Shown piece after piece: positions 15,025-16,997 of a DNA stretch of 42,072 nt. The stretch lies in sequence record PQ571306; one strand, written 5' to 3'. How positions within the stretch are numbered: the first letter of the stretch is position 1; each line of letters starts with the position of its first letter. Source of the DNA: Shigella phage phiSD1. Below the pieces are notes generated by a model. That model did no database searches. It worked only from the letters and a program-made list of their open reading frames with translations, and was not told the origin of the DNA. The position numbers and the translations under genes are program-made.

Positions 15025-15654
15025 TTAACGGCGACGACGTTCGCGGCGTGGTGCTTCATCTTCTTCGTCGTCTTCCAGGTCGTCGGTGCTCGCTACTACA
15101 CTTGAGCCGCCGAAGCGTTTACCTTCGCCCGCATACTTGATGCCGAGGATGGTAGCGCACAAGTTTTTCCATTCTTTGTGCCACCATAGCTCTACAGATA
15201 CGTTTGCTACACACCCGCTATATACCTGCTCGCCTTCTACTTCCTGCCCGTCGATGTTGAAATCAGGCTCGGTTTGTTTTTCGCCTTTAGCCGAAGTCAT
15301 AATTACCGGTTGGCGGTTGTTAGTGGCGCGGAAATACAGACCTTCTTCAAAATCTTCAATAGGATTGTCGCGCATTGCCAGGTCGCGTACGCAGCATTTA
15401 TCCGCATGGTGGTCTACACCGTAGTTGGCCTTCATCCATTTCTCGGCAGCGGCTGCCCCTATTGCCTCTGTTACAACTTCCAGCGCGGTGTCGTAAAGCG
15501 CATCAATTTGAGGATGGTCCGGCTGCATAAGAACAGTAACCTGATATTTACCCTTAATCAGTTTACCGGTTTTCTTGTCCTCAGAGTCAGCAGCACGTTC
15601 AAATACGTTAACCCAGGCAGTGTTTACTTTACGCAGATTCAGTTTAATACCCAT
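15025..15654 (-). CDS. Putative ssDNA-binding protein (DUF2815-like by recollection), acidic/basic C-terminal tail
   Basis: Position between nuclease and polymerase; acidic DDLEDDEEDE tail followed by RRERRRR; family assignment unverified. Confidence 0.45.
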   Translation of the reverse strand: MGIKLNLRKVNTAWVNVFERAADSEDKKTGKLIKGKYQVTVLMQPDHPQIDALYDTALEVVTEAIGAAAAEKWMKANYGVDHHADKCCVRDLAMRDNPIEDFEEGLYFRATNNRQPVIMTSAKGEKQTEPDFNIDGQEVEGEQVYSGCVANVSVELWWHKEWKNLCATILGIKYAGEGKRFGGSSVVASTDDLEDDEEDEAPRRERRRR

Positions 15655-15722
15655 CGTGATTTCTCGCTTTTCAGTTTATATTTCAAAGTTTACTCCGGGG
15701 AGCTGCCCGGCCAGTGATTAGA

Positions 15723-15751
15723 AATATAATAGCTAACTATTCAGGTGTCAA
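15723..15751 (-). promoter_or_regulatory. Sigma70-type promoter TTGACA-N17-TATATT (leftward)
   Basis: Consensus hexamers with 17-nt spacer containing GAATAGT. Confidence 0.55.
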
Positions 15752-15755
15752 CACT

Positions 15756-16997
15756 TTATTCTAAATCTTCTTCACTAACCTGATTCCACTCAGGACGTTT
15801 GTCGTCTGCCGTTGCGACGCATGGCGCTCCAGGCTTACGGGTGATGAAGTCTTTCAGTTCTTCTTCCGGTATAACTTTAACAGCTTCGGTCGGTGACATG
15901 AGCACTTCTTTAGTCAGCTTGTCGCTGTAGAGTTCTGCTACTTTCTCTGCGTCTTTCCACGCACGGTTGCCCATCTTACCCTCAACCAGCTTGTACCCGG
16001 GCACTTTCTTACCGGAATGCAACGCGGCGGCCATCGCTTTCTCAACCTTGTCGATGTGCTGGCGCAACAACGGCAACTTCTCATACTCAGCCACGAGTTG
16101 CTCTGGTGTCAGTTCCAGCGCAAAGTCGTCCTCTAGTTCTTCCGCCAGTACAGAATTAACCGTCTTTGTACGCGCGGCGCACTGTTCAGAGAACCGGCAC
16201 CACTGACAACCATCGACAGACGGCCTGAAGTCCGACGCTTTCAGGTTCTTCTTGCCGCGGAAATAAGCATCAAGGGCTAACAGCGCGCGTTTCTGTGCGA
16301 ACTTAGCAAACAGTTCCAGACCTTCGACCGAGATGTCCCACTCGGACGCGCCACCAGCGTACGGCTGGAAGATTACCAGACGAACAACTGTGATGTTATA
16401 TCGTCTCTTGAGGCGGCGATAAACACCGAGAGCGTATAGCATAAGCTGTTTGTTTTCTTTTGCTTCAACACGATGCCGTCCTGTTTTCAGGTCGCCGATG
16501 ATTAGCATGCGCTCGTCGGTGTTAGCCAGTTCCTGAACGGCAACAAGGTCAGCGGTTCCGAACGTCTCAACGCCTTCATACCCCGGATGCAATACTTCAG
16601 TAAGATTGACGCGCATTTCCAGCTTGGCGTAAGTCGCTACGTCGATAATCGCCTTGCAGTAGTCCGTGTACTTGCGCACCTGCTCAATCATGTCCGCCGT
16701 AATCAGTACCACGCCTTTCATCGGACTGATTAGCGCCTTAATCTGGCCTTTACCCTCATCCAGAACATAAGCGCCAACTTCGCGCTCTAACGGCAACGCG
16801 GTGCCTTTGATGTACTGGTTAAGGTGCATCTCTGCTATGGTGTGGCACGCGGTACCTGTAACGGCAGCTTTGCCGGACGTGTTAGGAATATCTTTTTCAC
16901 AGGCCAGTGATGCAGCGCATGACAGCCATTTTTTAGCACCTGACGGCGACAGTAATGCGTGAACATCGTTATTGCCGCCGCGTTCTTTTAAAATCAT
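15756..16997 (-). CDS. Cas4/RecB-like PD-(D/E)xK exonuclease with Cys cluster (DUF2800-like)
   Basis: GDLKTG and QLMLYA motifs, C-terminal CQWCRFSEQC plus N-terminal Cys; start at Met6 with ATGA coupling to upstream ORF. Confidence 0.6.
   Translation of the reverse strand: MILKERGGNNDVHALLSPSGAKKWLSCAASLACEKDIPNTSGKAAVTGTACHTIAEMHLNQYIKGTALPLEREVGAYVLDEGKGQIKALISPMKGVVLITADMIEQVRKYTDYCKAIIDVATYAKLEMRVNLTEVLHPGYEGVETFGTADLVAVQELANTDERMLIIGDLKTGRHRVEAKENKQLMLYALGVYRRLKRRYNITVVRLVIFQPYAGGASEWDISVEGLELFAKFAQKRALLALDAYFRGKKNLKASDFRPSVDGCQWCRFSEQCAARTKTVNSVLAEELEDDFALELTPEQLVAEYEKLPLLRQHIDKVEKAMAAALHSGKKVPGYKLVEGKMGNRAWKDAEKVAELYSDKLTKEVLMSPTEAVKVIPEEELKDFITRKPGAPCVATADDKRPEWNQVSEEDLE

Follow-up and report, generated by a model that had tools for sequence, protein, structure and literature searches.

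This locus raises the question of what a nuclease gene and an adjoining gene for an SSB-like protein do for the phage that carries them. The preliminary description of the DNA proposed a Cas4-like Fe-S nuclease paired with an SSB-like protein as a possible recombination module, and both open reading frames (ORFs) are indeed present on the minus strand, at 15756-16997 and 15025-15654 of the window, i.e., of the whole stretch of 42,072 nucleotides that was analyzed. The window belongs to a Kagunavirus-like coliphage (a siphophage) and is approximately 90% identical to GenBank phages in which the nuclease and SSB genes are annotated likewise. A cluster of exonuclease, Gp2.5-like and Pol I genes was found by Lopes 2010 (PMC2896510), and a duf2800-gp2.5-polA module has been named (PMC8093625). 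The nuclease-SSB pair is a published module, known from hundreds of phages. Because close relatives bear the same annotation, the module was published as early as 2010 and both families have characterized members, the earlier finding, correct but ordinary, brings nothing new as written. The sole unreported detail is a short acidic tail common to the nuclease, the SSB and the primase-helicase.

According to our analysis, it is likely that the two genes encode the DUF2800 nuclease and the DUF2815 (Gp2.5/Enc34-type) SSB-annealase of a conserved nuclease-SSB-PolA module within a replication operon. This module would function in single-strand-annealing repair and recombination-dependent replication, with the tails docking on one shared site. 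The genes and signals concerned are the following.

12785-14965, minus strand: family A DNA polymerase (PolA) with a 3'-5' exonuclease domain (Pfam DNA_pol_A and DNA_pol_A_exo1), a candidate docking hub.
14983-15005, minus strand: terminator-like hairpin AAGGCCC-TTCATT-GGGCCTT with a T run, between the SSB and PolA genes (MFE -13 kcal/mol, z-score -2.1).
15025-15654, minus strand: predicted T7-type (Enc34/DUF2815/Gp2.5-like) SSB-annealase gene, 209 aa (Pfam, PHROG, Foldseek).
15723-15751, minus strand: sigma-70-like promoter TTGACA-17-TATATT between the nuclease and SSB genes, a consensus match only (11/12 positions).
15756-16997, minus strand: DUF2800 nuclease gene, 413 aa, RecB/AdnA/Cas4-like PD-(D/E)xK type (Pfam matches, conserved motifs, model).
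16994-17266, minus strand: 90-aa ORF (PHROG 4965), upstream of the nuclease gene, its stop overlapping the nuclease ATG at 16997 as ATGA.
18165-20405, minus strand: primase-helicase (PHROG 3228, 3e-298; Pfam AAA_25) with the tail TEEDLE (18168-18185) and the internal linker DDLEDDED (19374-19397).
20464-20697, minus strand: 77-aa ORF (PHROG 5169) ending in LEDLE (20467-20481).

HMM searches, which the preliminary description had proposed as a check, assigned both proteins to families, with matches far beyond chance. The nuclease matched Pfam DUF2800 (PF10926) over the entire model (positions 1-368 of 368) with 234.8 bits, the cut-off being 21, and an E of 2.2e-69; PDDEXK_1 was matched at 4.9e-9. 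The lack of any PD-(D/E)xK profile match, named beforehand as counterevidence, was thus not observed. The SSB matched Enc34_ssDNA-bd (formerly DUF2815, PF10991) with 43.1 bits (cut-off 26; 4.7e-11) and PHROG 112 at 3e-32. NCBIfam returned a model for neither protein, and single-sequence searches of the PDB gave nothing for either, which made searches by profile and by fold necessary. Longer DUF2800 proteins (P0134 and others) were considered as a source of informative domain fusions and rejected, as only DUF2800 and PDDEXK_1 were present in them; a literature match to "phrog_69" was discarded as a citation-number artefact.

A length of 413 aa is shared by nearly all of the 120 closest nuclease homologues listed. 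The first homologue search yielded only sequences at least 95% identical, and conservation was therefore scored on a representative-library search instead, with a set of 146 sequences comprising the query and 145 representatives of clusters at 50% identity. The following parts of the nuclease were distinguished.

16917-16919, minus strand: C27, N-terminal cysteine of the presumed Fe-S "iron staple" (codon checked).
16548-16619, minus strand: E127 to D150 (GTAD), upstream acidic residues of the predicted active site.
16479-16496, minus strand: GDLKTG, residues 168-173, with the predicted catalytic D169-x-K171 (checked by translation).
16431-16448, minus strand: QLMLYA, residues 184-189, RecB-family QxxxY motif (checked by translation).
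16179-16208, minus strand: C264-x2-C267-x5-C273 (CQWCRFSEQC), three C-terminal cysteines of the putative cluster.
15783-16112, minus strand: folded C-terminal domain, residues 296-405 (about 110 residues), delimited by block-mean pLDDT and conserved residues.
15759-15776, minus strand: C-terminal tail SEEDLE.

The two PD-(D/E)xK signatures of the preliminary description, GDLKTG and QLMLYA, hold up well: D150, D169, K171, Q184 and Y188 are each 100% conserved (n = 146), as are G147 and G173, and E127 is conserved in 98%. The predicted active site of the nuclease is of the RecB type, consisting of E127, D150, D169-x-K171 and Q184-x3-Y188. The model of the protein (pLDDT 93) has AdnA as its closest structure, with Dna2, AddAB and Cas4 also among the nearest and Exo5 as a further neighbor, and AdnA was recovered at 4.6e-6 in a profile search against solved structures.

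The C-x2-C-x5-C cluster described earlier was confirmed as C264, C267 and C273, to which we add a fourth invariant cysteine, C27, absent from that account. All four are 100% conserved, the opposite of the poor conservation that had been named as grounds for rejecting the idea, whereas the four other cysteines (33, 51, 114 and 393) are conserved in at most 5% (n = 146). The CX2CX5C spacing equals that of AddB and Cas4, and AddB, Dna2, Exo5 and Cas4 carry Fe-S clusters. As one N-terminal cysteine and the CX2CX5C group flank the nuclease core in the "iron staple" manner, we infer that the protein holds an Fe-S cluster; the polarity of the nuclease is likewise presumptive. The nuclease has its fold, active-site motifs and cysteine pattern in common with the nuclease domains of AdnAB, AddAB and RecBCD and with Dna2, Exo5 and Cas4, but differs from them as a stand-alone protein of 413 aa with no helicase motor, a C-terminal domain of its own and no cas association. 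In this C-terminal domain, the block-mean pLDDT is 86-97 across residues 301-400 and 74-76 over 281-300, a block that spans the linker. Residues G329, G334, K336, V338, G340, R345, W347, D399 and R401 are conserved in at least 90% (n = 146). Pfam searched with the domain alone gave nothing except DUF2800 (positions 252-368), and no PDB fold match to it was identified with the whole nuclease model as query.

The neighboring protein is, as judged from its sequence and model, a true T7-type OB-fold SSB, in agreement with its earlier designation as SSB-like. With Foldseek, the top eight matches of its model were exclusively 4klk, 5odj/5odl/5odk, 4jg2 and T7 gp2.5 1je5 (E from 1.6e-9 to 1.9e-5), the next having an E of 0.8; a profile search against solved structures returned 4jg2 (2.6e-10) and 4klk (8.4e-5). 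The best structural matches, ORF6 of Enterobacter phage Enc34 (5ODJ) and T7 gp2.5 (1JE5), share with it an OB-fold with a long helix and a disordered charged tail, although the sequence identity is only 13-18%. Two parts of the SSB are relevant to its predicted activity.

15385-15399, minus strand: K86 to R90, aligned with the basic residues on which annealing by the phi12 homologue depends; K86 is invariant in the SSB alignment A2.
15028-15111, minus strand: disordered tail (pLDDT, conservation), with DDLEDDEEDE (15055-15084) followed by PRRERRRR (15028-15051).

The Enc34 SSB has been shown to bind ssDNA (PMC5686142), and the SSB homologue of Staphylococcus phage phi12 anneals DNA in vivo, an activity abolished by R79C/R83C (PMC2896510). 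The residues R79 and R83 of phi12 align with K86 and R90 here. By analogy with these two homologues, the SSB may be expected both to bind ssDNA and to anneal strands. The charged tail attributed to this protein stands in part: it is disordered (pLDDT below 50 at 182-189 and 196-209) and includes an acidic block, DDLEDDEEDE (residues 191-200), in which D192, L193 and D195 are at least 90% conserved, but it is not plainly acidic, as its terminus, PRRERRRR (residues 202-209), is arginine-rich. This basic ending is kept within the clade, in contrast to the Enc34 tail, which is acidic to the end (...WDEDEV, derived from the reverse primer in PMC5686142), and to the T7 tail (...GDF).

The arrangement of the genes connects the pair with replication. 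Related loci were retrieved with a 12-sequence alignment. In 85 of 86 loci, the gene immediately downstream of the nuclease gene, and on its strand, is that of the SSB (median gap 19 nt), and in 76 of 78 PolA comes after the SSB, the order also seen in the window. The nuclease-SSB-PolA order occurs in Staphylococcus Triavirus and Klebsiella chi-like phages as well, and is therefore kept across distant phages. In relatives, additional ORFs separate the nuclease gene from the SSB gene; these, together with the promoter-like site of the SSB's own and the terminator-like hairpin, indicate that the pair is linked by synteny and not by translational coupling. As the genes lie inside a replication operon and are conserved together with PolA, the module is replication-coupled. 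The proposal of a recombination module fits the literature (Lopes 2010, PMC2896510; PMC8093625), but not in the sense of a stand-alone recombination cassette. The duf2800-gp2.5-polA module of phi12 and other Triavirus members agrees with that of the window in the three-gene order, the Pfam families and the conserved basic annealing residues, although the proteins are only about 27% identical, the shared tail motif is DDFD.L there and EDLE here, and the SSB of the window ends in an arginine block. The logic of a nuclease gene adjoining an annealase gene is that of lambda Exo/Red-beta and RecE/RecT. However, the module has neither a nuclease of YqaJ/lambda-Exo or RecE type nor a Rad52-like annealase, the nuclease being closest to AdnA, Dna2 and Cas4 and the annealase candidate having an OB-fold. 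The annotation of Bas74, a complete relative, names no RecT, Erf, Sak or FEN, and no other annealase is encoded by the phage.

A member of the nuclease family has been described in Dhillonvirus Bas14. According to the accessible part of a preprint (bioRxiv 10.64898/2026.07.14.737667), this DUF2800 nuclease, B14T (Bas14_0045), triggers retron type IX and cleaves the retron msDNA at the stem-loop base, and D177A/K179A abolishes the cleavage. Truncation escapers of Bas14 are viable according to the same text, so B14T is dispensable and its role accessory in that phage. B14T and the nuclease of the window have GDLKTG with identical catalytic D and K as well as AdnA as the closest structure, and the Dhillonvirus orthologues that we retrieved are approximately 47% identical to our protein, with GDLKTG at 177-179 corresponding to the residues mutated in B14T. 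The preprint used residues 18-295 as the nuclease domain and called the C-terminus disordered, whereas residues 296-405 are modeled confidently and conserved here; in its accessible text, no Fe-S cluster is reported and the tail and the cysteines are not discussed.

The tails provide the further link to the replisome. EDLE ends the nuclease, the primase-helicase and the 77-aa ORF, and the SSB carries DDLE, an acidic C-terminal motif thus being common to the primase-helicase (...TEEDLE) and the SSB tail (...DDLEDD); PolA, ending in ...KRYAK, is without an acidic tail. Within the clade, C-terminal [DE]DLE was found in 33 of the 410 ORFs of eight replication-module families searched versus 3 of 9964 other ORFs. 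Among ORFs of the same locus, the tail of the nuclease is enriched approximately 7-fold, the majority of the ORFs with a match being primase-helicases, SSBs and a helicase. Across genomes, the tails of the nuclease and the SSB vary together, the observed score being reached by 0-1 of 10000 permutations in a comparison that reduced the effect of shared ancestry but did not remove it. This extends to lineage-specific endings, such as TEGDLE in the nuclease and primase-helicase of Jerseyvirus, ...AESLI in both the nuclease and SSB of one locus (L075), ...DMI in both of another (L082), and ...DDDEV in five proteins of phage N137.

In phage T7, used as a control, gp2.5 ends in ...GDF and gp4 in ...TDF, and both tails bind basic patches on gp5. 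The replisome of T7 resembles the module studied here in that a short acidic motif at the C-terminus is common to the SSB and the primase-helicase and missing from the polymerase. It differs in that the nuclease and small ORFs of the window also bear the motif, whereas the T7 gp6 exonuclease has no such tail, and in that the T7 tails end in an aromatic residue, which those of the window do not. The resemblance to the gp4 and gp2.5 tails docking on their polymerase suggests that the nuclease is tethered to the replisome. By the same analogy, the tails probably dock the nuclease, the primase-helicase, the small ORF and the SSB on one phage-encoded site, most likely PolA. The sharing of tails is in itself a common sequence and not proof of a common receptor. 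With rather less than even confidence, we extend this view to DUF2800-DUF2815-PolA phages in general, in which a lineage-specific peptide ([ED]DLE here; DDFD.L...DL[IV] or DDDEV elsewhere) on the nuclease, the SSB, the primase-helicase and some small ORFs may represent a docking code for one phage site, most likely PolA.

Taken as a mechanism, the nuclease fold would be stapled by an Fe-S cluster bound to the cysteines, and the nuclease would cut single-stranded DNA at ends, flaps or ss/ds junctions. The SSB would then coat the exposed strand and anneal a complementary one, and extension of the annealed strand by PolA would result in single-strand-annealing repair and recombination-dependent replication.

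The alternative nearest to this mechanism, and overlapping with it, is that the nuclease serves mainly in lagging-strand maturation, as a Dna2/FEN-like enzyme for 5'-flap or primer removal that is tethered to PolA by its tail and supplies the polymerase's missing 5' nuclease, while recombination is secondary. No 5' nuclease domain was detected in PolA; however, the end-resection enzymes AdnA, AddAB and RecE are equally close structural neighbors, and the Gp2.5-like partner has a proven annealase homologue, which fits recombination, so we regard this option as possible but doubtful. It is improbable that the nuclease mainly degrades host DNA for nucleotides, as do T7 gp3 and gp6, leaving the SSB only a replication role. 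The phage is of a virulent type and encodes several nucleases, and the T7 precedent is given in a database record note, but the DUF2800 family occurs just as commonly in temperate phages and prophages (PMC3424549), where destruction of the chromosome would be harmful, and the accessible preprint text does not report toxicity of B14T expressed without the retron. Hardly credible is a true Cas4 with an effect on CRISPR adaptation in the host, such as the feeding or corruption of spacer acquisition. The label "Cas4-like" is apt for the architecture, since the four cysteines and RecB motifs are the same and Cas4 structures are among the fold matches, and a precedent has been proposed for a Campylobacter phage Cas4, as far as the accessible part of the source goes (PMC4283603). 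By profile, however, the protein is not a Cas4-family member: Cas_Cas4 (PF01930) is absent among its Pfam matches at E up to 10, NCBIfam likewise gave no Cas4 match, and PADLOC at E up to 1 gave no Cas4, only weak DruK and Argonaute-associated "Aga_Cas4-like_Nuc" (8e-4) hits. AdnA and Dna2 are structurally closer to it than Cas4, and the genes conserved beside it are those of the SSB and PolA rather than cas genes. The proposed connection with CRISPR adaptation finds no support, as no cas genes are annotated in Bas74 and the scan of the window, directed at tandem repeats, revealed a single 12-bp x 3.1 repeat.

Docking itself has to be weighed against the view that the EDLE/DDLE tails have no common docking function and reflect a preference for acidic ends, local gene conversion between neighbors, or a signal for a protease or for turnover. 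Proteins of DNA metabolism commonly have acidic tails and the tail-bearing genes adjoin one another, which would be in keeping with this view. Against it, the three [DE]DLE endings among the 9964 other ORFs all belong to one small gene next to PolA, itself a replication-module gene, and the co-variation of the tails reaches into the lineage-specific detail of Jerseyvirus, L075, L082 and N137. Two Klebsiella pneumoniae phages use different tails, which disfavors a host protease and also a host-encoded receptor, considered here and judged unlikely. Altogether, we find tails without a docking function unlikely, though less so than host DNA degradation.

The DUF2800 nuclease was recognized only recently as the retron type IX trigger, and the accessible text of the preprint states its role in the phage life cycle to be unknown (bioRxiv 10.64898/2026.07.14.737667). 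The shared tail, the folded C-terminal domain and the invariant cysteines lead to concrete and cheap experiments on replisome tethering, for which the BASEL phage Bas74 is a tractable relative. If the docking code is true, the DUF2800 nuclease would be a true replisome subunit, replacing the missing 5' nuclease of the polymerase and feeding the annealase. A protein of which the role was still described as unknown in July 2026 would thereby acquire a function, and it would become understandable that a retron guards against the DUF2800 nuclease.

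According to our analysis, phiSD1 is a Kagunavirus-like coliphage (Guernseyvirinae), and the interval 15025-16997 contains two minus-strand genes, in which the preliminary description had seen a Cas4-like nuclease and an SSB-like protein. They encode a RecB/Cas4-like nuclease (DUF2800) and a T7-type (DUF2815) single-strand DNA-binding and annealing protein (SSB). The start codon of the nuclease (ATG at 16997) overlaps, as ATGA, with the TGA stop of an upstream 90-aa ORF, and among the matches listed a length of 413 aa recurs in nearly all of the 120 closest homologues. DNA identity to the 2-kb nuclease-SSB interval is ~90% in Escherichia phage Henuyfy11N and many others; in these records the nuclease is labeled "nuclease superfamily protein" or "exonuclease" and the SSB "ssDNA binding and annealing protein." PLSDB also contains a protein 95.6% identical to the phiSD1 nuclease, in record CP088689.1 (hit H126); this 44-kb E. 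coli sequence from blood is filed as a "plasmid" and is probably the genome of a Kagunavirus. The features of the pair and its operon are:

15756-16997, minus strand: nuclease gene, 413 aa
Nuclease residues 168-173: GDLKTG
Nuclease residues 184-189: QLMLYA
Nuclease residues 264-273: CQWCRFSEQC
15783-16112, minus strand: nuclease C-terminal domain (residues 296-405), confidently modelled and strongly conserved
15759-15776, minus strand: nuclease tail ...SEEDLE
15025-15654, minus strand: SSB gene, 209 aa
15055-15084, minus strand: acidic block DDLEDDEEDE of the SSB tail (residues 191-200), with DDLEDD at the start of the tail
15028-15051, minus strand: PRRERRRR, terminal arginine block of the SSB (residues 202-209)
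14983-15005, minus strand: hairpin with a T run, 3' of the SSB gene
18168-18185, minus strand: primase-helicase tail ...TEEDLE
19374-19397, minus strand: DDLEDDED in the primase-helicase inter-domain linker
20467-20481, minus strand: tail ...LEDLE of a 77-aa ORF
17839-17867, 15723-15751 and 12151-12179, minus strand: three sigma-70-like promoters (TTGACA-17-TATAGT/TATATT, 11/12 consensus matches)

The three nuclease motifs from which a Cas4-like Fe-S enzyme had been proposed are all present on translation. The protein matched DUF2800 over its full length (2.2e-69) and PDDEXK_1 (4.9e-9) in Pfam, which places it in the PD-(D/E)xK superfamily, and belongs to PHROGs family 69, "exonuclease"; among 1.84 billion cluster representatives searched, 11,861 were relatives (E up to 0.001). 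In an alignment of 146 sequences, made up of the query and 145 full-length representatives, S19, C27, G48, H52, G147, D150, D169, K171, G173, Q184, Y188, C264, C267 and C273 were invariant and E127 was conserved at 98%, while the remaining four cysteines were conserved at 5% or less. With the superfamily profile matched and the four cysteines C27, C264, C267 and C273 invariant in these sequences, the assignment clearly withstands the refutation proposed for it. AddB and Cas4 have the same arrangement of one cysteine plus three with CX2CX5C spacing, and by analogy with its homologues the nuclease would carry an Fe-S cluster. Since no Cas4 profile in Pfam, NCBIfam or PADLOC matched it, "Cas4-like" is apt for the architecture of the protein, which by these profiles falls outside the Cas4 family.

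The SSB matched Enc34_ssDNA-bd, the renamed DUF2815 (4.7e-11, Pfam), and PHROGs family 112, "Gp2.5-like ssDNA binding and annealing protein." Its model (pLDDT 81.8) has a core folded to about residue 181, followed by a disordered tail. The only significant PDB matches were T7-type SSBs (4KLK, 5ODJ/5ODK/5ODL, 4JG2 and 1JE5; E 1.6e-9 to 1.9e-5), including the Enc34 SSB (5ODJ/5ODK/5ODL) and T7 gp2.5 (1JE5), and the following match had E 0.8. K86 and R90 align with two basic residues of the Staphylococcus phi12 homologue whose mutation abolished annealing in vivo (PMC2896510). The tail runs from a nearly invariant DDL through an acidic run to the terminal PRRERRRR, and in relatives such acidic and basic blocks alternate, repeated two to three times. 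SSB tails are normally acidic to the end, whereas that of phiSD1 is atypical in its arginine block; the description of a charged tail typical of SSBs was thus half right, since the acidic run is capped by PRRERRRR. Apart from this word and the remark on CRISPR, the preliminary interpretation is supported; family, motifs, fold and synteny are shown by our own data.

The phage collection has 20 records with an SSB 95-99% identical in protein sequence and 419 in which this identity is 60-80%, so the SSB allele of phiSD1 is the rarer one. In a comparison with phage BUCT823 (locus L088), identity is 95-100% over a large part of the operon; it is only 53-67% in the first ~100 PolA codons (14670-14969) and in the SSB core (15120-15719), and 87% in the stretch between the two (14970-15119), made up of SSB tail and intergenic sequence.

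The minus-strand operon comprises, in order, the 77-aa ORF, primase-helicase, a 165-aa ORF, the 90-aa ORF, nuclease, SSB, a family A DNA polymerase (PolA), VRR-NUC, an 84-aa ORF and a SNF2-type helicase; a divergent plus-strand HTH gene sits between primase-helicase and the 165-aa ORF. Of 86 DUF2800-encoding loci, taken from phage records and viral contigs, 85 have the SSB gene directly after the nuclease gene and in the same orientation (median gap 19 nt), and PolA follows the SSB in 76/78. The order is kept in Staphylococcus Triavirus and Klebsiella chi-like phages. This arrangement is an already known module: a cluster of exonuclease, Gp2.5-like protein and Pol I was described in 19 phages, with recombinase activity demonstrated for the Gp2.5-like protein (Lopes et al., 2010; PMC2896510), the name "duf2800-gp2.5-polA" was given and a shared context noted in Gram-negative phages (PMC8093625), and for Enc34 ORF6 the structure was solved and ssDNA binding demonstrated (PMC5686142). 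In Pfam, PolA has 3'-5' exonuclease and polymerase domains only; RecT, Erf and Sak annealases and FEN-type nucleases are all absent from the annotation of one complete relative.

One of the three promoters falls between the nuclease and SSB genes. Because this promoter-like site precedes the SSB gene and the hairpin with a T run follows it, the gene looks like a separate unit of expression. The nuclease-SSB gap is ~100 nt in phiSD1 (15655-15755) and ~230-540 nt with a small ORF in many relatives (loci L004-L006, L009, L011-L014 and others); some records list an HNH endonuclease there, and the interval looks like an insertion hot spot. Just past the 5' end of the operon, in a region with small ORFs only, the sole tandem repeat found by a scan of the window (TGGTGTAACAGG x 3.1, 22227-22263) may be an operator or origin-type repeat. 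A 376-aa protein (40496-41626, minus strand), encoded opposite to the surrounding tail genes, matches PHROG 704 ("DNA repair exonuclease") and, weakly, calcineurin-like phosphoesterases; it is a candidate second DNA-end nuclease.

A new observation, outside the earlier claim, is an acidic C-terminal tail shared among replication proteins; we found no statement of such sharing for DUF2800 proteins in searchable papers. The ending [DE][DE]LE occurs in 3/514 window ORFs (stop-to-stop, at least 40 aa), all three operon genes. Across all fetched loci, C-terminal [DE]DLE was found in 33/410 ORFs of the eight replication-module families searched versus 3/9964 others, these three being one small gene directly upstream of PolA. 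The motif varies by lineage, yet changes jointly within each phage: TEGDLE is common to nuclease and primase-helicase in Jerseyvirus, D[ED]DL.. occurs in Dhillonvirus, AEDDFD[KE]L is common to nuclease and SSB in a Staphylococcus phage, Klebsiella phage N137 has ...DDDEV-type tails on primase, a 130-aa ORF, nuclease, SSB and helicase, and in other contigs nuclease and SSB share ...AESLI, ...DMI or ...EF[IV]. This was tested with 16 to 40 representatives per set (nuclease-identity cut-offs 60-90%, C-terminal 3-6 residues): at most one in 10,000 re-pairings of nuclease and SSB tails matched the likeness seen within genomes, a permutation in which the effect of shared ancestry is lowered, yet still present. 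Same-locus ORFs were ~7-fold enriched for the nuclease's tail, the matching ones being mostly primase-helicases, SSBs and a helicase. The 165-aa acidic ORF (17310-17807; PHROG 3127, unknown function) ends in ...KYFEEE and its relatives in ...YYEEE, ...FYDAE or ...YFELED, a second conserved acidic tail type of the operon.

Two K. pneumoniae phages carry different tails, which points to a phage-encoded receptor. In T7, our positive control, gp2.5 (...GDF) and gp4 (...TDF) have a common tail that the gp6 exonuclease lacks, and these tails bind basic patches on gp5. Given the sharing of tails, this precedent, the differing K. pneumoniae tails and the absence of the tail from PolA in every case among the loci compared, we propose that, through its tail, the nuclease docks on the site used by SSB and primase-helicase, most likely on PolA. 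An alternative receptor is the groove of the SSB itself, which in the Enc34 crystal holds a neighbour's tail (PMC5686142).

The AlphaFold2 model of the nuclease (pLDDT 93.1, pTM 0.84; 97 sequences) includes the C-terminal domain, in which K336, R345, W347, D399 and R401 are each 90% or more conserved. For residues 296-405, Pfam gave a match to DUF2800 only, and no PDB fold match was identified. These residues are modelled confidently in phiSD1, whereas in the available text of a preprint the C-terminus of B14T, a Dhillonvirus DUF2800 protein, was treated as disordered and residues 18-295 were used. According to the same text, B14T cleaves retron msDNA at the stem-loop base, which triggers retron type IX and is abolished by D177A/K179A, and its life-cycle role is given as unknown (bioRxiv 10.64898/2026.07.14.737667, July 2026). 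The GDLKTG of Dhillonvirus orthologues, at 177-179, is the counterpart of D169/K171 in phiSD1. Jerseyvirus homologues (L005, L015, L017, L018) have 474-488 aa from the first start codon versus 413 aa, that of phage ER1 having 477 aa as annotated; in many of them the tblastn match is split in two, suggesting an insertion of ~60 residues.

In the most likely mechanism, the nuclease would act on single-stranded DNA, cutting it at ends, flaps or junctions; the exposed strand would be coated and annealed by the SSB and extended by PolA, with substrate, polarity and biological role projected from homologues. This would lead to repair by annealing and to recombination-dependent replication, and possibly to the removal of flaps or primers as well. 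To this known module, the putative shared docking tail and the folded C-terminal domain of the nuclease add a modest new lead.
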